The translations under genes were made by a program, and so were the position numbers. The notes beneath the pieces were generated by a model. That model saw nothing but the letters and a program-made list of their open reading frames with translations. It searched no databases and was not told the DNA's origin. From a virus, in IMG/VR virus record IMGVR_UViG_3300045125_000165: DNA of 28,386 bases. One strand, written 5' to 3'. Position 1 is the first letter of the stretch, and every line of letters begins with the position of its first letter. Positions 823 to 28,386 of this stretch are shown in pieces.

Positions 823-2306
823 AATTTCAACCAATCACAACTAAAAATATAGTAATTTGGCTTGCATCAGGCGCGATCGCTGGTGCAATTGGCTTATGGT
901 CTGCTTCGCTAACCTTTGAGCGCACCGTAGGTAAAAGAGTAACTGCCAATGGAGTACCTGTGGTTGTCACTATTGATCGTCCGAACAAAAACAGGCTTTT
1001 ATTTCTATCAATTGCAGCAGGCTTGATTGGTGCGGCGGCGTTGGCAACTTTGGTTGTAGATGAGAAAGGCGATCGCCTGTTATGTCCTGAAACACTGGTA
1101 GATGATATCGGTGAAGCAAATAAGGTGTTAGCTAATAATATTGGCTGTGCATTACTGTTTGTGTCAGGCAGGGGCTTTAAATGGGCATTTGGTAAGCAGT
1201 CAATTGCTAGGCAGATCACATTGTCGGTTTTGCCAGTTGAGATTCAGCGATCGCATGAAGGAATTAGTCTCTAAGAAAGATTGGTTCAAAGATTTTTGTC
1301 AGCACGTAGGCACTATATTTTGTGCGGCTCGACTGGGGACGGAAAGACAATGATGCTCAACGCGATTATTATTACCTTCCTTCAAAACGCTCAAGCAAAT
1401 GTCTCCAATGGAATTAGCAAAGACCGCTTAGCTATATGCGATCTGAACTATGGCAAACGAGACGAAAAAGGAAATCTCAATACTTGGCTTGATTTACCTC
1501 GCGAATATATTGCAGCTACGGTTGACGAAATCATGCTATCGGTTCGCTCTGTAATTGCAGAGCTACGCGATCGCCGCCAAGATGATATCAACTGTGCTAC
1601 AGCAAAATCCAATGGTGACGAAGCTAAATACAAGCTACTTGAGGCTAAGTCGAAAGAGCGTGGCAACGTTCTTTTAGTTGTAGAGGAGCAGATGAGTACT
1701 CGCGCCGCTATCAAGTCGGTTGATCCTGAATTACTCAAAGAATTTGACGCTTCAATTAACGAGATTCTGCGCTATGGACGTGGTTATTTAGTCAAGGTCT
1801 TGATCGTGCTTCAGTACCTCAATGCAGGCAAAGGTGACGAAGGTAACGGAATTAATTTGGGCTTGCGTGACCAGTGTTGCATTGCCTTATTAAAAACAAT
1901 GGCAGTGCAAAAAACTCAAGTTGAAAAAATCTCGACCGAACCTGATGAGTTGGTTAGCCAATTTAAAGAAGCCTTGAAGCGATTCCCGTATCTTGCCTTA
2001 GTTCAAAACGATGGCGGCAATCCAAATATTAGACAGATTCCCGATCTATCTTGGACTAGTGGATTTTCTATCAAGAAAAATGTTGATTCAATTGATGTTT
2101 GGTGGTCACAAGTCTGGACAGAAGCTAATCAGCAATGGGCTATTGACTTGATTGAACAAGGGCGATCGCCAACATCATCAGCATTCGATTCCGAAATCAA
2201 AACCCGTTTCGGAATTGGCAGAAATGCTAAAGACCCTCGCTACCAAAAATATAAGGCGGCGATTGAGCAAATCAAATCTAAGCAAAAACAATTAGTAGGA
2301 GCATAA
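819..2306 (+). CDS. Membrane-anchored FtsK/SpoIIIE-HerA superfamily ATPase (DNA translocase / coupling-protein-like), split by about 2 indels near 1245-1290
   Basis: ORF 819-1274 has 2 TM segments. A bridging frame reads DRMKELVSKKDWF. ORF 1281-2306 has Walker A GSTGDGKT, Walker B LLVVEE and the FtsK-like motif ILRYGRGYLVKVLIVLQ. Confidence 0.75.
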
Positions 2307-3251: not shown

Positions 3252-3885
3252 TGAACTACAAACTTTAAAGAAACTTGTGAGGGAGCGCAAAACTGGCTAC
3301 CTCAACGAGAACATCTTGGAAAAAGCTATCCGCAACATTGCCGCCCATGAATCTGATGGGGTAATGGAGTGGATAATACCAGTCCTAATTTTGATTTTTC
3401 TTTCTACTGGTCTGTGGCAAAACTTCAAACCTAAAACACAGATTTTAAATAAGTTGCCAGAGATCAGTACGAGCCAAATCAAAGGTAAAAAACCTAATCT
3501 AGTTTACAAAGAACACTTTATAGATAACTCCCCTGTTGGCTCCTATGACTTTACTTTGATGTCCGACGGTGAAGTTAAAGGGGTAGCAGTTCCTAGTCCT
3601 TGCGATGGCAAAATTGTAATATCTGAAGAGATGCGAGGCTATGGCAATACGATCGCCATTGATTGCAAAGACTATCGTATTTTTATGGCGCATCTAGCAG
3701 AGAAGGGATTACCCGTTGGCAGTGTAGTTAAAGAAGGTGAGGTTATTGCTATTCAAGGAACCACAGGAGATTCTACTGGTGAGCATATTCACTGGGAGAC
3801 ATCACCAGCAGGGACAGATAAACGCATAGAAGATAGAGCAATTACAGCACCATTAGTTTTGCAATACATTAATAAAATTCGATGA
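3214..3885 (+). CDS. M23 family peptidoglycan peptidase with a TM anchor
   Basis: GYGNTIAI...FMAHL...VKEGEVIAIQGTTGDSTGEHIHWE, the M23 HxH motif. TM segment WIIPVLILIFLSTGLW. The start may be the ATG at 3235. Confidence 0.9.
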   Translation: MTQLQKLMQLTDDELQTLKKLVRERKTGYLNENILEKAIRNIAAHESDGVMEWIIPVLILIFLSTGLWQNFKPKTQILNKLPEISTSQIKGKKPNLVYKEHFIDNSPVGSYDFTLMSDGEVKGVAVPSPCDGKIVISEEMRGYGNTIAIDCKDYRIFMAHLAEKGLPVGSVVKEGEVIAIQGTTGDSTGEHIHWETSPAGTDKRIEDRAITAPLVLQYINKIR

Positions 3886-4172
3886 ATAAACTGCCAATCC
3901 TTACACGCCGCCCAAGACTTTACAGTCAGCGCTCTGCAAAAGTAAAGCCAAAGCGATCGCCTAACAAATCGATCAAACAAATAATCAACACTCTAACAAT
4001 GTTTTGCGCCTTGGTTTGCTTAGTATTAATCGCCTATGCCATCTATATCGCTCTACCTCACATTGGTTATGGACTCTGGCTAATGTTGCCTTGCCTTATT
4101 CAGGCGGCGATTATTGCGTTGATTGGTGCAAGCCTTCAAGCGTTTTTGCAGTGGAGCGATCGCGATGGGTAA
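3882..4172 (+). CDS. Small 2-TM membrane protein with a basic N-terminus (holin-like candidate)
   Basis: K/R-rich N-terminus and two long hydrophobic stretches; lies between the two wall hydrolase genes. Confidence 0.55.
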   Translation: MNKLPILTRRPRLYSQRSAKVKPKRSPNKSIKQIINTLTMFCALVCLVLIAYAIYIALPHIGYGLWLMLPCLIQAAIIALIGASLQAFLQWSDRDG

Positions 4173-5863: not shown

Positions 5864-5929
5864 ACTCCGTGATCCTCTGTTCCCAGTTTCCAAAAATGGT
5901 AGTATGGCGATAACATCAACGCGATCGCC

Positions 5930-7558
5930 ATGCCTACCCTAAAGCAACTAACAAAAAAACACGCGACTTATATACTAGAGTGCGATCGCTGGACACTACT
6001 AGAAAAACTTGTCGCAGGTGGCAAAAAGGTAGACTTAGAAACAAAGAAAAGTCTACTTCAAAACCCCGATGGCAGACCACCAAACATTATTGAAGCTAGA
6101 GCCAAACTAGCCCCATACGTCAATATCTTGGGTTCGGCACTGCAAAGAGTTGTTGCACAGCTATTTCAAGAACCCGCAAATTTTGAAGGGTCTAAAGATG
6201 ATTTTTGGATTGATTGGCTAGACTCTAAAGCATTTGTGCTTGACGGGGATGATGACAGTAAAGCCAGTTTTACTCTTGGATTGAAGAAAGCTGCAATGGC
6301 GGCTTTTACCAATGGCAAGGCGATCGCCGAAATTAGCACCAAGTATTCAGGTGAAGCGACAAACTTAAAACAACAAAAGGAACTAGGCGAGTTAGATCCT
6401 TATGTCGTGATATTGCCTCAGTCAGCGATGTGGGACTGGGATGTTGATGCAAGTGGGTTTAAATACGTCAAGATTTGTCGATATCGATTGGAGAAAAAAG
6501 ACTGGAAGGATGTTGATGTACCAGTTTATAGCTTTACAATTTATGAGAGGCAGCAAAATAAGATAGTTGTAAGCCAATACGAAGTTAGACCTAAACCCGA
6601 ACTTGAGCAGTACAAAACTAATCCTGCTAGTTTCAAATTAACGGAATCCACTTCAGATGATGACGTGGTGATCTCCACCGTAGAGATTGGTGGGATTAGC
6701 TATGAAAATGTCGAAATATTTAATCTCAATGGCAAGTTCGATTTCCGATCAAGACATTAACCTTTCCGCCTGAATTGTGCATAGGCGATCAGTTAATGGA
6801 TCTGTGCGTTGAGTTTTTCAATATCAAGGCTGGCATTGCTTGGAAACTCCAATCGATTAATTTCTCCATGCCAGTGGTGACTTTACCGCCTAACGTTGAA
6901 ACTGCTGATGAATTATGGGGTAAGGGGCAAAAGTTTGGCGACGGATATTTCTTGGCAGTGCCTAATGGGACAACTGTAACGACTTTAGATATGGGAGGTG
7001 GCAGTATCTCAACAGCTATTAACTATCTCGAAAAGATCGCCGAGAGCTTTATGTCTTTGTTGCACCAAATTTCAACAAGCGCAGCCTCAAGTAATTCGGG
7101 ATTAGGGTCGCAGCGCTGACAAGACTCGCGAAGATAAAAAACTTGAAGTCTCTATGCTTGAAGTAACTGGGATGGAGATCGCTTCGTTTGCGGACTCTAT
7201 ACTTGATTGCAGTGCGATCGCTAGGAATGAAAATATTGATTGGACAGTAGACGGGTTCAATAATTACCTCGGGGAAGGGCTTGATGAGATGTTTAGTGAT
7301 ATTGAGAGAATGCTAAAAAATGCCATCAATACACCAACACTTCGCAGAGAAGAAATAAATAAAACCTCTACAGCTTTCTGCAAAAAATACAAAGTTTCTG
7401 ATGACTCTAAAAAAGCGATCATGGATGAAATCGCCACCTTGCCTGATGAAACTTTACTCAAGCCAATGTCTTTACCTTTACCGCCAACACCACCACAGGA
7501 GCAAGCCAATGCAGACGGACAAGATACTGGAGCAGATATTCAACCAGAAGAAGCCTAG
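5930..7558 (+). CDS. Probable phage portal protein, split into 3 ORFs by indels
   Basis: The N-terminus HATY...RW..L..LVAGG...EARAKLAPYVN resembles DUF4055-type portals. ORFs 5930-6760, 6775-7119 and 7154-7558 join to about 540 aa with an acidic, Pro-rich tail. Confidence 0.6.
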
Positions 7559-10941: not shown

Positions 10942-11808
10942 ATGGCGAACAAACAGATATCTAGCGCGATCGCTACAACATCTATTAAAGAGAAAACACT
11001 CCCTCCTATCCTTCGTTGGGCTGGCGGGAAGCGCAAACACAAATGGTTGTTTGAGGCTATTAAGCAAGTATTCAATCCGAATAAACATAGGTTGATTGAG
11101 CCATTTGCAGGTGGTTTGGCGATCGCGTTGGGAATAGAGCCGAAATGGGCTTTATTGAATGATGCGAATCCGTTTTTAATCTCTTTATATAGGCGGATTA
11201 AAAATGGGTTTGAGATCGATCCAAACCTCAAAAACTATACATCCAAAGAAAGTTATTACAGGTTGCGCGATCGCTTCAATACCTTACTGTCAATGCCGTA
11301 CCAAGAAGTACAGACAGAAATAACAGAGCTTTTCTACTACCTCAATCGCACTGGTTATAACGGGCTTTGTCGATTCAATCAAAGTGGAGGTTATAACACC
11401 CCTTATGGCAAACTCCCAAAGCCAAAACTAGATCACGATTTTGAAGCTTATCGCGATCGCTTCCAAGACTGGGTGTTTACCAGTATGGACTTTGCGGATA
11501 TCCAAGTATTTCCTCATGACATCGTAGTTGCAGATCCTCCCTACGATGTTGCCGAAGGAAAAGATAAGCACAATTATGTCGCTGGTGGGTTTGATTGGGC
11601 GGATCAGGTGCGTCTCGCTGATTGGCTTGAGTCTGCCAATGTACCTGTATTTGCTTGTAATCTTGCGACCGATCGCATCATCAATCTCTACACAGAGAAG
11701 GGTTTCGATATTCAATATGTCAACGCTCCAAGGGCGATCGCTTGTAATGGCGATCGGGCTAAGGTGCGCGAGATTTTAGCTACTAAGAATTTGGGAGTCG
11801 CACCATGA
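10942..11808 (+). CDS. dam: DNA adenine methyltransferase, D12 class (Dam-like)
   Basis: PPILRWAGGK, IEPFAGG, LNDAN, YYLNRTGYNGLCRFN and DPPY motifs. Confidence 0.93.
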   Translation: MANKQISSAIATTSIKEKTLPPILRWAGGKRKHKWLFEAIKQVFNPNKHRLIEPFAGGLAIALGIEPKWALLNDANPFLISLYRRIKNGFEIDPNLKNYTSKESYYRLRDRFNTLLSMPYQEVQTEITELFYYLNRTGYNGLCRFNQSGGYNTPYGKLPKPKLDHDFEAYRDRFQDWVFTSMDFADIQVFPHDIVVADPPYDVAEGKDKHNYVAGGFDWADQVRLADWLESANVPVFACNLATDRIINLYTEKGFDIQYVNAPRAIACNGDRAKVREILATKNLGVAP

Positions 11809-11860
11809 GTTTACGCTATGAAATGGGAAGTTGAGAAGCCAGTTTTGAAAGACAAAAGCA

Positions 11861-12579
11861 ATGCTCAAAATCATTGAACTATTCGCAGGAATACGCGCCT
11901 TTTCTCTCGCTTCTGAGTGGATAGGTGGTTTTGAGACGGTTGAAGCAGTAGAAATCAATTCTTACTGCAACGAGAAAATGCTTAAACGTTATCCCAATGT
12001 GCCTATCCATGAAGACATTAGAACGTATCACCCCGCAATACCAGCAGATGTCATTGTTGGGGAAGCCCATGTCAAGGTAACAGCCAAGCAGGAAAAGGTG
12101 AAGGCTCAAAAGACTCACGCTCAGGACTTATCACTGAGTTCTTTCGAGTTATTCAAGAATCTATGCCTAGATTTGTCATTTGGGAAAATGTCTACGGCGC
12201 GATCGCTAGTGGACAGCTTAGAGAAACCCTCACCGAACTCGATAGACTTGGCTATGGATTCGATGCTGAAATCATATCAGCAGAGGAGGTTGGAGCGCCC
12301 CACGAAAGAAAAAGGATCTTTGTGGTTGCCTACTCCAACAGCATTATCAAAGCCGCCAGAGGCAAAGTACTCGAAAGCTGGACAGACCAAATTAGATCTC
12401 AAATTGCGATCGCTCGGACTTTTGGATGCTGGGAAAGTTCGCAGTTGCCAGACAACGGCGTGGATCATGGGGTTCTCAATCGATTGGCTGGGCTGAGTGC
12501 TTATGGTAATGCGATCGTCCCTCAAGTGGCGATCGCGCCTTTGTTGAGAGTCAAATATTTAGCGGAGCTAGCAGGATGA
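11861..12579 (+). CDS. dcm: C5 cytosine methyltransferase (alpha chain), one indel in the G-run near 12060
   Basis: Motif I ELFAGI. After the shift: GSPCQGNS (motif IV), WENV (VI), HERKRIFVVAY (VIII), AYGNAIVPQVA (X). Confidence 0.88.
12188..12496 (+). CDS. Nested out-of-frame beta subunit of the C5 MTase (carries motif IX)
   Basis: The alternative frame reads ...LERPTKEKGSLWLPTPTA...TAWIMGFSIDW, a motif-IX-like WxMGFPxxW segment missing from the alpha frame. This matches the M.EcoHK31I-type arrangement. Start inferred. Confidence 0.65.
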   Translation: MSTARSLVDSLEKPSPNSIDLAMDSMLKSYQQRRLERPTKEKGSLWLPTPTALSKPPEAKYSKAGQTKLDLKLRSLGLLDAGKVRSCQTTAWIMGFSIDWLG

Positions 12580-13199
12580 ATGACTTACCGATTGAAAAGC
12601 AATTTACCCACATGATGTTTTGCGCTCAAATCGCCAATATAGACTTAGACAGCGCAAAACAACTACTCACCGAGCTTCATATGCTCTACCTAGGGCAGCA
12701 AGCGGTCATGGTCAAGATCGCAAAGCAAGAATTTCTAGGATTCAATACAACTACTGAGGGAGCGAAACTGAAGATGTTTGAACTCAGTCGCGATTATAAA
12801 AGGGCTTTTGAGCTAATCAAGAAAGGCGATCGCCTAATGTTTGAGCTTAGTCGAGATTACGATAAAGCGTGGCAATTGATGCAACAAGGCGATCGCTTAG
12901 CTTGTTGGGTTGACTACGATTCGTGTAGAGATATTGCTACTGCACGAATCATTTGCGGCGCTCTAGATATAGGTGCTAGAGGCATGGGTTATATCTATCT
13001 ATTTGAAGATCAAATTCAAACTAGCAATATGTTTGTTAGTCAGTGTAATCGCCTAAATATTGAGTTTTATCTACCACTGCCTGACGACACGATTGCAATT
13101 AGTCGAGAAAAGTTTGAAGCGATCGCAACTAAAGTAATTCAAGAAAAAGTTGGCAACCCTTTGGACAAATTGATTGAAACTGTGGAGGCGATCGCATGA
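12576..13199 (+). CDS. nblA: NblA-like phycobilisome degradation adaptor (about aa 1-55) fused in frame to a phage hypothetical domain
   Basis: LPIEKQFTHMMFCAQIANIDLDSAKQLLTELHMLYLGQQAVMVKIAKQEF matches the NblA pattern LSLEQQF..F..QV..M..EQA...L..L. The downstream domain begins with a duplicated MFELSRDY. Confidence 0.75.
   Translation: MNDLPIEKQFTHMMFCAQIANIDLDSAKQLLTELHMLYLGQQAVMVKIAKQEFLGFNTTTEGAKLKMFELSRDYKRAFELIKKGDRLMFELSRDYDKAWQLMQQGDRLACWVDYDSCRDIATARIICGALDIGARGMGYIYLFEDQIQTSNMFVSQCNRLNIEFYLPLPDDTIAISREKFEAIATKVIQEKVGNPLDKLIETVEAIA
12774..12899 (+). repeat. Diverged 63-bp tandem duplication, each unit ending at a HIP1 site
   Basis: MFELSRDYKRAFELIKKGDRL / MFELSRDYDKAWQLMQQGDRL; units at 12774-12836 and 12837-12899. 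Confidence 0.9.
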
Positions 13200-13402
13200 T
13201 TAAACTTGCCATCAAATCACACCGCGATCGCCTTGGACTAACCCAAAAAGAACTAGCGAATCTGCTAGGCGTGACGGAGAATACTGTCGCTAATTGGGAG
13301 AATGGGCGATCGGGTTTTGAACAATTTGCAAGAGTAGTTTTGCTCTGCAATACCTTAAATTGTGAAGCTAAAGACTTGATTGAGGAGGCGATCGCGTCAT
13401 GA
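13196..13402 (+). CDS. XRE family HTH regulator (Cro-like)
   Basis: RDRLGLTQKELANLLGVTENTVANWENGRS. Confidence 0.9.
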   Translation: MIKLAIKSHRDRLGLTQKELANLLGVTENTVANWENGRSGFEQFARVVLLCNTLNCEAKDLIEEAIAS

Positions 13403-13729
13403 GTGATTTTTCGATCGACTTGAAAATCTTTCTAAAGAAGAACGAGATCAGGTTCTTAGTGGTTTGCTATTAGCTCAATCGCTAATCAGATTCATTGAGC
13501 AAGACGGATTCAGTATCCCCATGAAATTGCAGCAGAGATCGCTTTATTTGATCGCGCTGAAAACGACACATTTGCTAAGGCATTATTTGATCTTGTTTTC
13601 AGGGGTTTTCCAATCTGTGCAAATAACGGAGATAGCGCCCCTTGGCATTGGATCTCTAGTCAAGAAAAAACAGTGGTCAAGTCTTTGTTCTGTTGGCTAG
13701 TCCGTAGAGCAGAAGGAGCGATCGCATGA
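13399..13729 (+). CDS. Hypothetical protein (frameshifted)
   Basis: Starts at an ATGA overlap at 13399. The reconstructed frame ends ...WLVRRAEGAIA* overlapping the ATG at 13726. Confidence 0.5.
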
Positions 13730-13968
13730 AAGACCAAACAGCACTGGAACGGGTAGCGTATTGGATTCGATGGTACAGAAAAAGCAATGGTATGACTCAA
13801 GCTGAACTCGCTAAAAAGATTTACAGCGCAAGAATCACCGTGACATCGTGGGAAAAAGGGCATCGCTCAATATCTATCGATACTTTAGAAGCAATATCTA
13901 AAGTGTTTAACGTTCGGATTACAGCATTTTTCAAGAAAATACCAAGCGAACAAATATGGAAGCATTAA
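13726..13968 (+). CDS. XRE family HTH regulator
   Basis: YRKSNGMTQAELAKKI...TVTSWEKGHRSISIDTLEAISKVFNV. Confidence 0.9.
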   Translation: MKDQTALERVAYWIRWYRKSNGMTQAELAKKIYSARITVTSWEKGHRSISIDTLEAISKVFNVRITAFFKKIPSEQIWKH

Positions 13969-14165
13969 CCAAAATTAAAAACAGGCAACTCGCGATCGCC
14001 GATGAAATGTTGCATGACAGCCGCAATCCAGCACTTGACGCAAAAGCCTTAAATGCAAGGCTAGTCTACTATCGCCGTCAAATTCTTTCTACTACTTCTG
14101 AGTTAGGAGTGGCGATCGCTGCTCTCGATACCGATATAACTTTACCAATGGAGATACTAGGTTGA
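13956..14165 (+). CDS. Hypothetical protein
   Basis: Coupled ORF within the operon. Confidence 0.55.
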   Translation: MEALTKIKNRQLAIADEMLHDSRNPALDAKALNARLVYYRRQILSTTSELGVAIAALDTDITLPMEILG

Positions 14166-14791
14166 TTAATCTCAAGATCTCTCCGTCATCTCTAACCTTT
14201 CTGTTAGATGAATGCCCTCGATGTTGGTACATGGCAGTAAATGGGATCTATAAACGACCATATACACCATTCCCTAGCATGTTTAATAAAATGGATAAGC
14301 TAATGCGTGGTGCTTACCAAGGTCAATCTAGCCTTGATATTACTGGAAAAGAAGGTGTATTTGACACCAAAGAATATAAGCTTGTTTCTCGACAAATCCC
14401 TATTTCCGACAATCACACCATTCAATTTTCTGGCAAGACTGATTGCTTGATTAAATTTGACGATGGCACTATCGGAATCATGGATTTTAAGACTAGCGAT
14501 GTTAAAGAAGATACAGCTAAGTTTTATGCACCTCAGCTGTATGCCTATCGAGAGTGCATGGATGCTGAGGTGTCAAAAATGGGGTTACTTTGCGCTAGTC
14601 CTGTCAAAGCAGTGCTAGATGGCGGGATCTCAATGCGATTCTCTGAAACATGGGTTGAAATCCCCATAAGCGAAGACTACTGGCAAGGCTTCACTGACAA
14701 ACTAGCTACACTTTTGCTTACTCCCTTCGAGTGGGTACAAGGTAATCCAAAATGTCCACACTGCGAATACCAAAGGAATAAGAACTCTTGA
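14162..14791 (+). CDS. PD-(D/E)XK exonuclease (RecB/Cas4-like, four Cys)
   Basis: ISPSSL...CPRC, SGKTD, IMDFKTS, QLYAY and a C-terminal CPHC. Confidence 0.85.
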   Translation: MINLKISPSSLTFLLDECPRCWYMAVNGIYKRPYTPFPSMFNKMDKLMRGAYQGQSSLDITGKEGVFDTKEYKLVSRQIPISDNHTIQFSGKTDCLIKFDDGTIGIMDFKTSDVKEDTAKFYAPQLYAYRECMDAEVSKMGLLCASPVKAVLDGGISMRFSETWVEIPISEDYWQGFTDKLATLLLTPFEWVQGNPKCPHCEYQRNKNS

Positions 14792-15198
14792 ACTCAATCG
14801 TTTTATATGCCACAGCCACGACCGATCCCGAATTGCGTCACACACCTGACACTCAAAACAGGATCGCGTCATTCCTAATCCAATTTCCTGCGCCCAAACA
14901 GGAAGATCCACCACTAAGGCTCAAAGTTACGGCTTGGAATAACCTCGCAGACAAGGCGATGTTGGAAATCGCTAGAGATTCTCAAGTAATCATCGAGGGG
15001 CGATTACGAATCGATAATGTTGATCGCGGTACGCACAAAGAAAAGCGCACTGAATTAGTTGCCGAAAAGATTCACGCGATCGCCGCCACCACACCTCAAC
15101 CAGTACCAACCAACTACGCTCAGTCTGTTCCCGTAGCCCCGATCGCTCCACAAGTAATTCAACAACAAACAGAAGATTATGATGATATCCCATACTAA
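14788..15198 (+). CDS. ssb: Single-stranded DNA-binding protein (divergent cyanobacterial type)
   Basis: PELRHT...KVTAWNNLA...VIIEGRLRI OB fold, Pro/Gln linker, acidic tail DYDDIPY. Confidence 0.85.
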   Translation: MNSIVLYATATTDPELRHTPDTQNRIASFLIQFPAPKQEDPPLRLKVTAWNNLADKAMLEIARDSQVIIEGRLRIDNVDRGTHKEKRTELVAEKIHAIAATTPQPVPTNYAQSVPVAPIAPQVIQQQTEDYDDIPY

Positions 15199-15221
15199 AA
15201 CCCCGATTAGTTATTTCTGCT

Positions 15222-15731
15222 TTGGGTTATGTCATTATTCCTGAATGGCATTACGAAGATTTGGTTTCCGAGAATCAGATTAAGAGCGATCGCATTCAAC
15301 AATTAGAATCAGATGTCAAGGACAAGGCTAATCGACTGGCAGAGATTAAAAGTAATAGCGATCGGCAAAAGGCAATAATCCAACAATTACAAGAGCTAAC
15401 CGATAAATTAGATTTAAACAATCGCTTCCTTAACGAAAGGCTGGAAGAGATCAATGCTCAAAACGCTCAACTTAACGCTAATTTGCTTGAAGCCCAAAGA
15501 GAACTTGACGCAATCAAGGAAGCTTACACCAAAACTCTGGCTGCCAATGCTGAGCTTGATTTGAAACTAGGTGACGCGATCGCCAGCATCTCAAAGTCCG
15601 AACAGCAATACAACGAACTGACGGTACAAATCAGCTTGGAGCGTACTGCCAACAAAATCGCTATTGAAAACCATCGGCGTGATGTATTGATAACTCTAGA
15701 CAATTTGGAAATTAGTCAAAAAGCCAGTTAG
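15222..15731 (+). CDS. Coiled-coil hypothetical protein
   Basis: Heptad-rich, E/Q/L/N-rich sequence; start uncertain. Confidence 0.65.
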   Translation: MGYVIIPEWHYEDLVSENQIKSDRIQQLESDVKDKANRLAEIKSNSDRQKAIIQQLQELTDKLDLNNRFLNERLEEINAQNAQLNANLLEAQRELDAIKEAYTKTLAANAELDLKLGDAIASISKSEQQYNELTVQISLERTANKIAIENHRRDVLITLDNLEISQKAS

Positions 15732-16000
15732 CGATCGCGGATTCTCTTTCCTCAGTCCAAGAGTGTTGCCTGCGATACCAAGCAAACAACTCTTGGCTAC
15801 CTTTATCGCGATTGCAGGGAGGCAAGCAGGAAGTAGATTGCTACTCACTGTTTCGCCTCCCTTTGCCTTTGGCTTTGCGTGATCCAAAGACTGAGCTAGC
15901 CCCCCGCAGTACACAATTCGTGATTAAAAGCTTCATAGATACTTGCCCTAAAACTGCGAATAATTTCTTTCTTTCGCGCAAATTCAAGATCATGAAGCAT
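15712..16000 (-). CDS. HNH endonuclease (frameshifted)
   Basis: AAGGAG ribosome-binding site, then MLHDLEFARKK..SFRASIYEAFNH. Shifted frames give YCG..AQSLDHAKPKAKGGETVSSNLLPAC..NRDKGSQELFAWYRRQ. Confidence 0.75.
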
Positions 16001-16087
16001 TAAGGCGGATCTCCTTAAGTTTTAACTAATCTAGCAAAAATTAGCTCCCAAAAGCTTAAAATTAATTATGGTTTTCGGTAATTGGTA

Positions 16088-16243
16088 ATGCAAATTCAAC
16101 AAAACGAAGAGCCTGAGTTTGTCGTAGTGCCATTTAAGGCGCAAGTTGCTATGTCCACATTTTTGTATGCAAAATACCAAGAAAATGTGACAAAGCGACT
16201 CGACAAATACCCTGACCTTTCCCCAGTGGCTTCAAACTATTGA
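16088..16243 (+). CDS. Small hypothetical protein
   Basis: MQIQQNEEPEFVVVPFK...; stop overlaps the next start. Confidence 0.45.
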   Translation: MQIQQNEEPEFVVVPFKAQVAMSTFLYAKYQENVTKRLDKYPDLSPVASNY

Positions 16244-16446
16244 GCGATCGCTCCCACCAATTAGAAGACTATTCCGAGTTAGAGGATGAGGTCACGGTGC
16301 AAGACTTCTACTTCGCTACTATCGATTGGCATTTCTTCCGATGGCAGATTGGCGCAGCTTCAGTCATTGGCAACGAATACACCACTTTTGAGATCTCTCT
16401 AGTATTTTTCACACTTATTTGGTTAACAGAAAATCATGGCAATTGA
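16240..16446 (+). CDS. Small hypothetical protein
   Basis: ORF track; coupled to its neighbours. Confidence 0.5.
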   Translation: MSDRSHQLEDYSELEDEVTVQDFYFATIDWHFFRWQIGAASVIGNEYTTFEISLVFFTLIWLTENHGN

Positions 16447-16595
16447 ACAGACAAATGTGGTAGAACCTCGCGAAACTAAAGTTCTGGAAAGTGATTTAGT
16501 GCGATCGGCTTACAAGTTATTAGCGATGGGTTACGATCCAAATTCATCGGTTTTCAGGTCAATGTACGGGCAGTTGAATCTGCGAGTTAGATAAC

Positions 16596-16626
16596 AAAAA
16601 AGCTTCTCAGATTGAGAAGCTTTTTT
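16596..16626. terminator. Bidirectional rho-independent terminator between convergent operons
   Basis: AAAAAA-GCTTCTCA-gat-TGAGAAGC-TTTTTT. Confidence 0.85.
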
Positions 16627-16698
16627 GTGGTTAATATTTTGGGATTTTTGAGCTATAAACTTGTTTGGCGATCGCTGGTTAACGACAAAATTAATTGA

Positions 16699-17085
16699 TT
16701 ATGCGATCGCCTCAACAGTATCAGCCAAAAACGAAATTGCCTTATCCATAGTTGCTTGCTCTGATGCCCTAACAAAAGATAGCTTTATTGCCGATGGGGA
16801 GCATGGGGCGATCGTGAGTTGGATCTTTTTTGAGTGACACAAAAGCATTAACAGGGTTAGAGAACTACCAGAAAAGCCAGTCCTCAAATTGCATGGATAG
16901 TTTAAATCAATGCGATCGCCTCCTTTCCATCCCTTGTTAGAAACAACATTTTCCCAATGGTATAAACCCACCTCAACCTGTCCCATAATATCAGCGATAT
17001 CTTTTGCTAGCTCCGATAACTGAAAAGGATTTTTTCTGTAATTAATTTGATTCTGAAGCCATTCGGCTCCTGCATATTTAGTCAT
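16699..17085 (-). CDS. Hypothetical phage protein
   Basis: 128-aa ORF in the leftward operon; ends DTVEAIA*. Confidence 0.65.
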   Translation of the reverse strand: MTKYAGAEWLQNQINYRKNPFQLSELAKDIADIMGQVEVGLYHWENVVSNKGWKGGDRIDLNYPCNLRTGFSGSSLTLLMLLCHSKKIQLTIAPCSPSAIKLSFVRASEQATMDKAISFLADTVEAIA

Positions 17086-17303
17086 TGCGCGATCGCCTCC
17101 ACCTGTTCAGAAGTTGAATCAATTAATGCGGAAATCTCAAGCATTTTGGGATCAACAGGAAGGAGAGGATGCCCATCAGCACAATCGTTAGAGACTTCGG
17201 CAATAAGTTGCAACACAGCAGCAACGCCTATTTTAGCCATCATACAAAGTAGTTCTGATTTAAACCTATCTTTGTCTTTTTCTGATAAATATTTAATATC
17301 CAT
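17082..17303 (-). CDS. Hypothetical protein
   Basis: ATGA overlap with the next gene; ends EQVEAIAQ*. Confidence 0.6.
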   Translation of the reverse strand: MDIKYLSEKDKDRFKSELLCMMAKIGVAAVLQLIAEVSNDCADGHPLLPVDPKMLEISALIDSTSEQVEAIAQ

Positions 17304-17327
17304 AATCGCGATCGCCCTATCCTTTAA

Positions 17328-17702
17328 TTAAAAATCATCATCGTATTGCCCACCGCAGCCATTACTAGCAGCTTCATTGTCTTTGCGAGAGCCAAGTAGA
17401 TCCAGTCTATCAACCCGAATCACTGGCTTTTGACGCTCATCGCCTGTGGTTCTGTCATTCCATCGATCAAACTTAAGAGAGCCAATAACACCAATTAAGC
17501 TACCTTTCTTGACATAGTTTTGAGCGACTTCAGCAGTCTTGTCCCATAGCTCTAGATCAAACCAGTCGGGCGGATCATCACGGTTACTGGTATTGCGATT
17601 GACGGCGATAGTAAAGTTAGCGACAACTTTACCTGACTCAAAATACTTGACTTCAGGATCGCGTCCTGCACGACCGACTAGATGGACTTTATTTAACGTC
17701 AT
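17328..17702 (-). CDS. ssb: Single-stranded DNA-binding protein (canonical short cyanobacterial type)
   Basis: MTLNKVHLVGRAGRDPEVKYFESGKVVANFTIAVNR...PDWFDLELWDKTAEVA...; tail YDDDF. Confidence 0.95.
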   Translation of the reverse strand: MTLNKVHLVGRAGRDPEVKYFESGKVVANFTIAVNRNTSNRDDPPDWFDLELWDKTAEVAQNYVKKGSLIGVIGSLKFDRWNDRTTGDERQKPVIRVDRLDLLGSRKDNEAASNGCGGQYDDDF

Positions 17703-18004
17703 AGCTTGATTTTGTCCCAATGTTTTTTAGTGAATGCGATCGCCTCTTGGATAGAGTCGAATGCAGTTTTCTCTCTAAATTTGTCTGTTTTATGGCGTGG
17801 CTCTTGCACCCAAGTTTTGTTTTTAGTAAATAAACAATGATTGCAAGAGATTACCCAATACACGTTCTCTAAAGCTCTTTGTCCATCTTTAAGCTCAAAC
17901 TTAAAAACCGAGCGAATCTCTAAAACATCTGCGCGACGTTCATCTAGCAAAATCCGTAAGCTTGGATAAACTGGTAATTCAAAATCCTCAATATTTAGTT
18001 CCAT
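17699..18004 (-). CDS. Hypothetical protein
   Basis: Coupled ORF. Confidence 0.6.
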   Translation of the reverse strand: MELNIEDFELPVYPSLRILLDERRADVLEIRSVFKFELKDGQRALENVYWVISCNHCLFTKNKTWVQEPRHKTDKFREKTAFDSIQEAIAFTKKHWDKIKL

Positions 18005-28190: not shown

Positions 28191-28386
28191 TTATTTTGCT
28201 CCCAAAATATCTGAACAGCAACAATACGCGCCTCAATACTGGTAGCTGACTCATTAATTGCAAAACCAGCTACATCATAGCTATACAGCAATCCAAGGCA
28301 AAGCAAATAAAGGGTTTAATATGTCTCAAACTGCTACAGAATGCTTAGAAATGCCAAAACGATTAGCTGTCACGGTTGTTGACACT

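Follow-up and report, generated by a model that had tools for sequence, protein, structure and literature searches.

IMG/VR virus record IMGVR_UViG_3300045125_000165 is a 28.4-kb stretch of DNA with 42% G+C and a phage-like gene content, from a source contig of 102,531 bp. We analysed the whole of this stretch, referred to here as the window, for the placement of Highly Iterated Palindrome 1 (HIP1, the exact octamer GCGATCGC), which Robinson reportedly described from cyanobacterial genomes in 1995. The window encodes DnaB, a primase, two SSB proteins, ThyX, a PD-(D/E)XK nuclease, two Xre-type helix-turn-helix (HTH) proteins, a Dam-family methylase and a split C5 methylase, together with fragments of a portal protein and an integrase. 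The Dam-family methylase matched TIGR00571 above the cut-off (158.9 bits) and the putative C5 methylase, which is split, gave a weak score. The host range of the element appears to be Pseudanabaena-like. The first 56 residues of the open reading frame (ORF) 12576–13199 are up to 93% identical to nblA of 62 of 71 genomes from one cyanobacterial family, and the SSB and ThyX genes have 70–83% nucleotide identity to genomes of the same family.

HIP1 occurs 90 times in the window (3.17 per kb), compared with 0.39 times in dinucleotide-preserving shuffles. The copies are distributed over the three reading frames (46, 21, and 5 copies) and occur in coding DNA at 3.14 per kb and in non-coding DNA at 3.28 per kb. 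They are concentrated immediately before start codons. Nine of 59 curated starts (1255, 4165, 5930, 12837, 13196, 13399, 13726, and, on the minus strand, 17085 and 17303) have HIP1 0–6 nt upstream compared with 1.31 expected (Poisson P = 1e-5). All nine copies end 0–4 nt upstream of the start, where HIP1 is concentrated approximately 7-fold, and begin 8–12 nt before the ATG, which gives a sharp peak. Neither 20,000 random placements nor 4,041 circular shifts reached nine HIP1-linked starts even once. Leaving out the three least certain starts (1255, 12837, and 13399) gave 6 of 56 compared with 1.24 expected (P approximately 2e-3, an estimate), and an automatic gene call that was identical for all sequences gave 4 of 56 starts compared with 1.2 expected.

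In compact operons and in phages, translational-coupling joints have the Shine–Dalgarno sequence (SD) within the upstream gene and an ATGA or TAATG overlap between the two genes. The joints in the window have this ordinary layout and are predicted to couple translation. The SD (GGAG or GAGG) is in the last upstream codons, followed by a spacer of 7–10 nt and a start that overlaps or abuts the stop (ATGA), and in the window element HIP1 occupies the spacer. Stop and start overlap as ATGA at 13196, 13399, 13726, and 17085, and ATG 4165 falls within the last nucleotides of ORF 3882–4172. GGAG is fused to HIP1 at five of the nine joints (Table 1).

An earlier, sequence-only reading had pointed to HIP1 fused to ribosome-binding sites and to unrelated proteins ending in (E/G)AIA. 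Every motif that it quoted was found where it had been placed, and the HIP1 copies it listed near starts 4165, 5930, 12837, and 17303 lie 1, 1, 3, and 4 nt upstream of the ATG. The tails ETVEAIA, IEEAIAS, EQVEAIAQ, and DTVEAIA were read directly from the ORFs. AEGAIA is the tail of gene 13399–13728, whose frame stays open only if two frameshifts are allowed for, one at a T5 run (~13407) and one at a C4 run (~13515); read in this way, the gene gives one plausible protein of approximately 108 aa. The start behind HIP1 13388 exists but is at 13399 rather than 13400, and start 12837 is where all homologues begin but sits within a longer open frame. One additional joint HIP1 (1247–1254) abuts ATG 1255, which we infer is probably the true start of a frameshifted FtsK-like gene.

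The proposal that the (E/G)AIA tails are the product of a DNA signal held. The tails are alike because the SD and HIP1 are read in the upstream frame, where GAG of the SD gives E, or GGA gives G, and GCG-ATC-GC follows, and they are therefore a by-product of the joints. The tails follow the SD: VEAIA, VESIL, and KGEAS, with KGAL and EGAL within ALTKGAL and ALAEGAL.

For comparison with host genes we used two complete host-family genomes with 42% G+C, G468 (800 kb; HIP1 density 1.81 per kb) and G464 (400 kb; 1.56 per kb). These supplanted a first host proxy because its G+C content is 53%; 400 kb of that genome (G002, reached from an assembly labelled Pseudanabaenaceae) served as an extra control. 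One simple codon-model gene caller was used for the window and all host sequences. The ratio of observed to expected HIP1 0–6 nt upstream of starts was 3.2 (automatic) or 6.9 (curated) in the window and 0.5–0.85 in the three hosts. Thus, the equal enrichment before host starts that was to refute the sequence-only reading was not seen. With the curated starts, 9 of 59 in the window compared with 10 of 1114 in the pooled hosts have HIP1 (Fisher P = 7e-8). Under the automatic call, HIP1 lies at 2 of 24 tight same-strand junctions in the window compared with 1 of 124 and 0 of 54 in the hosts, and called proteins ending in E(A/S)I(A/L/V)x0–2 number 4 of 56 in the window and 0 of 729 in host DNA.

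Counts that do not depend on a gene call agreed with this. GGAGG is followed by CGATCGC in 6 of 27 cases in the window and 12 of 551 in host DNA. The pattern GGAGGCGATCGC-N0-4-ATG was found 275 times in the 71 host-family genomes (~305 Mb, 0.9 per Mb) and three times in the 28-kb window, which makes it ~117-fold commoner per base in the window. Ten of the host instances were inspected and approximately one was a plausible gene start, and the exact 16-mer GGAGGCGATCGCATGA occurs once in the 71 genomes. The host controls agree with a study of 20 cyanobacterial genomes in which HIP1 was unrelated to start codons (Xu et al. 2018, PMC5861425). Phage PaV-LD had no start with HIP1 but is uninformative as a control because HIP1 is so sparse in it (0.54 per kb). 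Together, these data show that the enrichment of HIP1 at joints is real and phage-specific.

The relatives for which DNA was available are one 75.7-kb IMG/VR viral contig (G478, HIP1 1.48 per kb), eight short viral loci, and one 1.7-kb metagenome contig (L221). G478 and the window have in common a C5 methylase, nblA, the C-terminal part of ORF 12576–13199 (P_A-C), the first HTH gene (HTH1), gene 16699–17085 (P_C), and a 290-bp block, in a different order. L221 has a full-length P_C homologue, and P_A-C homologues are found in seven further viral loci. Among the joints common to the window and a relative, HIP1 is absent from the relative at three of four (Table 1), and it is absent at six more distant joints too. 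The SD and the overlapping stop and start are kept in the relatives; this layout is thus an ancestral and general one. Because most of the relatives' joints lack HIP1, it is neither required nor universal as a linker. HIP1 at the joints is a derived, lineage-specific state, as found for three of the four joints compared, and an optional, mostly window-specific filling of ordinary joints. In G478 itself there was no enrichment of HIP1 at starts (2 of 127 genes, where the null gives 2.6). HIP1 inside genes is just as patchy: G478 lacks copies 13119 and 16912, the second of which L221 has.

Among the related viral contigs, several gene pairs that are unrelated to each other meet at GAGG + 5 nt + TCATGAG (L215:5280–5300, G478:C1 ~37590–37610, and L366), and so the group may possess a generic conserved joint that does without HIP1. 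The G478:C1 instance lies just upstream of the C5 methylase gene of that contig and the L366 instance is the 3′ end of an 83-aa ORF starting at 2839. Motif scans of genome and viral contigs returned mostly high-G+C non-cyanobacterial DNA and four HIP1-rich viral loci with cyanophage-like G+C, three of which have GGAGGCGATCGCATGA at a gene start. Relatives of the DnaB helicase gene were not found in genome or viral contigs, and cultured phages gave distant matches only. A megablast of the window against cultured phages, the PD-(D/E)XK gene against viral contigs, and P_C against the 71 host-family genomes each gave no match.

Table 1. HIP1-bearing joints, starts and associated features of the window, and the corresponding joints in relatives
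Feature	Position	Strand	Sequence elements in order	Genes and notes	Upstream tail
Joint	13184–13199	+	GGAGGCGATCGCATGA: GGAG, HIP1 13188–13195, ATGA	gene 12576/12837–13199 to HTH gene 13196–13402	ETVEAIA
Joint	13384–13402	+	GGAGGCGATCGCGTCATGA: GGAG, HIP1 13388–13395, GTC, ATGA	HTH gene to gene 13399–13728	IEEAIAS
Joint	13715–13729	+	GGAGCGATCGCATGA: GGA, HIP1 13718–13725, ATGA	gene 13399–13728 to second HTH gene 13726–13968	AEGAIA
Joint	17082–17100	-	GGAGGCGATCGCGCAATGA: GGAG, HIP1 17089–17096, GCA, ATGA	gene 17082–17303 to P_C 16699–17085	EQVEAIAQ
P_C end	16699–16713	-	GAGGCGATCGCATAA ending at 16699: GAG, HIP1 16703–16710, ATAA		DTVEAIA
Start of gene 17082–17303	17301–17315	-	HIP1 17308–17315, ATG 4 nt further		
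Start 4165	4153–4167	+	GGAGCGATCGC, then G, then ATG	upstream ORF 3882–4172	SDRDG
Start of portal gene fragment 5930–6760	5921–5932	+	HIP1, then C, then ATG		
Start 1255	1247–1257	+	HIP1 1247–1254 directly against ATG		
In-frame scar	12774–12899	+	one gene start, present as two diverged copies of 63 bp	MFELSRDY...GDRL	
Partner HIP1	13224–13231	+	pairs with joint HIP1 13188	inside HTH gene; predicted hairpin holds AUG of the 13196 start	
Partner HIP1	16668–16675	-	pairs with P_C tail HIP1 16703	predicted hairpin at operon 3′ end, no U tract after it	
P_A-C 3′ joint (P_A/HTH1), compared			window GTGGAG+GCGATCGC+ATGA; G478 GTGGAG+TCTATATT+ATGA	different downstream gene in G478	
P_A-C 3′ joint, five of the further loci			AAGGGAGAAGCATC+ATGA, no HIP1		
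HTH1 3′ joint, compared			window GAGGAG+GCGATCGC+GTC+ATGA; G478 GAGG+TTTTATC+ATGA, no HIP1	6 nt shorter in G478	
P_C 5′ joint, compared			window GGAG+GCGATCGC+GCA+ATG; L221 GGAGG+TTGCATT+GTG	unrelated upstream gene in L221	
P_C 3′ joint, compared			window HIP1; G478 HIP1; L221 GCTATTTT+ATGA, no HIP1	other gene starts 2 nt later in G478	

The sequence-only reading had also expected the breakpoints between related phages to fall at junction HIP1 sites. Most of them do fall at gene joints and two joint halves break exactly at HIP1, but the relative usually has no HIP1 at the corresponding place. The two exact breaks in homology are at the 3′ end of P_C and at the start of a gene beginning MFE. 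G478 has, 2 nt behind the P_C tail (…GTTGAG+HIP1), the ATG of a gene whose product begins MFEFNRD. In the window an operon closes with this P_C end and its HIP1, and a run from HIP1 at 12826 into the gene start ATGTTTGA… matches the G478 joint downstream of P_C at ~26 of 30 nt (counted by eye), with unrelated left flanks. The P_C end and the MFE... start are thus apart in the window and fused via one HIP1 in G478, which indicates that the two halves assort independently around HIP1.

The in-frame scar involves the same kind of gene start. Copy 1 ends in HIP1 12826–12833 + CTA directly before ATG 12837 of copy 2, which itself ends in HIP1 12889–12896. At the scar junction an internal, family-conserved HIP1 of copy 1 (in the GDR codons) meets the HIP1+CTA+ATG of copy 2. 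The ORF that contains the scar (12576–13199) begins with the nblA-like part (NblA is a phycobilisome degradation protein) and reads on, with no stop in between, into a phage gene unrelated to that part, all homologues of which begin at the equivalent of 12837/12900. This ORF is either a fusion or the result of a lost stop codon.

Two further observations favour some use of HIP1 in exchange. The tail of P_A-C is discordant with the rest of the protein in that a 78%-identical homologue ends in ALTKGAL and a 66%-identical one has ETVEAIA. The P_A joint of the window shares 20 of 22 nt with the P_C joint and is closer to it than to its own G478 orthologue (counts by eye). The borders of the acquired host nblA (12576–12743), like the methylase/nblA junction, are without HIP1, and one breakpoint lies within P_C at ~16970, away from any HIP1.

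We favour the reading that these are translational-coupling joints filled with HIP1 in a HIP1-saturated lineage, where they sometimes provide microhomology for crossing over, and give it an even chance of being right. HIP1 density in the window (3.2 per kb) is approximately twice that of the sampled host DNA and of the relatives, and HIP1 may have come to fill the slot because the slot and the C-terminal tail would accept any 8-mer. A crossover within a joint HIP1 would have 8 bp of microhomology to work with and possibly Chi-like stimulation. HIP1 has been reported to boost recombination and transformation in Synechococcus PCC 7002 in a Chi-like, methylation-dependent manner (bioRxiv 10.1101/2024.09.10.611283) and a role in horizontal transfer has been suggested for it (PMC13756078). 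We propose that crossing over inside a joint HIP1 preserves the distance from SD to ATG, so that recombinants stay expressed and therefore survive. If so, joint HIP1s would serve now and then as crossover points rather than as a dedicated universal linker. This weaker role is plausible, with few joints behind it.

Several observations weigh against the reading that we favour. Turning an A/T-rich spacer into HIP1 needs approximately five changes, or at 13388 a 6-nt indel, which would be hard to reach by drift. G478 is unenriched although its type of host and its joint layout are the same and it encodes a related C5 methyltransferase. The remaining non-coding DNA of the window is not enriched in HIP1 (3.3 compared with 3.1 per kb in coding DNA); tolerance alone thus fails to account for the sharp peak before the ATG. 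The DTVEAIA tail is kept in most of 15 P_C homologues, and so the P_C HIP1 may just have belonged to the end of this gene for a long time. Breakpoints at gene ends are expected anyway, the evidence for exchange comes from very few joints and one distant relative, and the 59 starts were curated by the author with no independent gene caller.

A somewhat unlikely but serious alternative is that the joint HIP1s are by-products alone, with no role in exchange: a genome-wide force that makes HIP1, either selection for HIP1 density or a methylation-directed repair ratchet (Elhai 2015, PMC4390886), would have introduced it in situ at the 8-nt slots under the weakest constraint. The absence of HIP1 at three of four orthologous and six more distant joints fits this, as do its equally patchy turnover inside genes, the twofold density of the window over relatives and sampled host DNA, and the fact that the element encodes a Dam-family and a C5 methylase. 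A force of this kind leaves unexplained why other non-coding DNA is unenriched, and it accounts neither for the exact breaks at the P_C end and the MFE... start and the scar at 12774–12899, nor for a P_A joint that is closer to the P_C joint than to its G478 orthologue. We consider it unlikely that SD-HIP1-ATG serves the cyanobacterial mobilome as a recombination joint that is portable and ready for expression, such that crossovers in joint HIP1s swap genes that are still translated. The premise of that view is that HIP1 is the one 8-mer common to all the phages, plasmids, and chromosomes of these hosts and stimulates recombination.

The stronger version put forward in the sequence-only reading, in which RBS-HIP1-ATG (RBS, ribosome-binding site) is a universal, dedicated linker for swapping genes as expression-ready cassettes, is not supported and seems very unlikely. 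It would account for four small genes in two clusters being flanked by joint HIP1s (13188/13388/13718 and 16703/17089/17308), for the union of two halves at one HIP1 in G478, and for GGAGGCGATCGCATGA at gene starts in other HIP1-rich viral contigs. However, HIP1 is at only 9 of 59 starts, relatives swap genes at the same joints without it and most orthologous joints lack it, the nblA borders and methylase/nblA junction are without it, one breakpoint lies inside P_C with no HIP1 near, and G478 shows no enrichment. What stands of the linker idea is the occasional crossover, for which two joint halves and one scar are plausible examples; its universality did not survive the 9 of 59 starts and the three of four joints without HIP1. 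A function at the RNA level, in which a joint HIP1 pairs with a second HIP1 in the mRNA and hides the RBS, which would enforce coupling, or forms 3′ hairpins, appears highly improbable. Two predicted structures are of this sort, an 11-bp stem at 13184–13234 that buries the SD (-21.1 kcal/mol, z = -3.1) and a 3′ hairpin at 16668–16711 (-24.1 kcal/mol, z = -4.5), but four of six tested joints fold no better than shuffles and HIP1 pairs ≤40 nt apart are not in excess (8 compared with ~10.6 expected by the author's count). We find it scarcely credible that the pattern is due to chance or to how start codons were picked in so small a window. There are nine sites only, starts 1255, 12837, and 13399 depend on how frameshifted or fused genes are read, and the pattern was noticed post hoc; yet the excess persists without those three starts (6 of 56 compared with 1.24 expected) and under the automatic gene call, and the gene-call-free counts (GGAGG then CGATCGC, and the family-wide GGAGGCGATCGC-N0-4-ATG count) agree with it.

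Two further candidates were tried and rejected. An extended SD was considered because GGAGGCGATC resembles the complement of the 3′ end of 16S rRNA (GGAGGTGATC); no perfect copy was found in the window, G478, or 800 kb of host DNA. General HIP1–HIP1 pairing in RNA was set aside because only two of six joints fold significantly and close pairs are not in excess.

Other features of the element are recorded here. At 10942–12579 the Dam-family adenine methylase adjoins the C5 cytosine methylase, which is split over two overlapping frames. Enzymes of both classes methylate HIP1 in cyanobacteria, and the C5 methylase is also present in G478 (~50% identity). The two SSB genes lie on opposite strands: that at 17328–17720 has 79–83% nucleotide identity to host ssb, and that at 14788–15198 is divergent and phage-like. 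Frameshifts at homopolymers affect many genes (13399–13728, portal, integrase, C5 methylase, ThyX, and FtsK-like) and may reflect errors of long-read sequencing instead of a decaying element. The stretch 15712–16000 contains no convincing gene and has 73% nucleotide identity to G478 70176–70466; it may be a regulatory or RNA element. The 77 nt at the window end (28307–28384) are 95–96% identical to short stretches of the host-family genomes G459, G440, and G428. ARAGORN found no tRNA in them, and they might represent a small RNA or what is left of an attachment site.

What HIP1 does has been a question for 30 years, and recent work favours recombination and DNA uptake. An element with HIP1 concentrated approximately 100-fold in one slot and with a few exact breaks is a small, concrete system for the crossover question, and it raises the question of whether phages use their host's own iterated word to shuffle genes. 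If the portable-joint view were true, HIP1 would gain a concrete role in phage mosaicism. Even if joint HIP1s are a by-product, the odd shared (E/G)AIA tails are explained and annotators are cautioned that such tails are DNA signals and not protein homology.

The window pattern resembles several known systems. It shares with translational-coupling joints an identical layout that is kept in relatives without HIP1, but here the spacer is a G+C-rich palindrome instead of an A/U-rich filler, with the same 8-mer at many joints. Conserved boundary sequences between lambdoid phage modules are reportedly the subject of the linker idea of Susskind and Botstein and of the 2001 work of Clark et al. on HK620. 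Those too are short sequences shared at borders and proposed as crossover points in mosaic exchange, but the window word is a host-wide iterated palindrome and is not phage-specific. Nor does the same motif flank the exchanged genes in both partners here, since the relative is without HIP1 at three of four joints. The start-associated sequences that Pope et al. are said to have described in 2011 from Cluster K mycobacteriophages are likewise short conserved motifs just upstream of a subset of starts. They are, however, asymmetric, phage-specific, and thought to be translational, whereas HIP1 is palindromic, occurs in the host as well, and is dispensable at orthologous joints. The promoter-early stem-loop (PeSL) of T4-type phages combines a promoter and a terminator over tens of bases and has been shown to recombine and give mini-circles (Arbiol et al. 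2010, PMC2839356). Like the PeSL, the window repeat is a brief signal for expression that recurs between small accessory genes, at places where related phages differ by insertion or replacement. By contrast, it is a translational signal of 8–12 nt with no promoter, most relatives do without it, and no recombination product was observed directly. In place of a promoter plus terminator stem-loop, the window joints lie inside operons at overlapping stops and starts, and two of six fold significantly. In comparison with chromosomal HIP1 (PMC5861425), the octamer is identical, it is vastly over-represented in all three frames and in non-coding DNA, and genes of the Dam-family and C5 types, which may encode the cognate GATC and CGATCG methyltransferases, are nearby; the difference is that in the window HIP1 is concentrated before starts, is often fused to GGAG, and has approximately twice the density of the sampled host-type DNA. 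The feature is thus a combination of two known things, HIP1 and translational-coupling joints.

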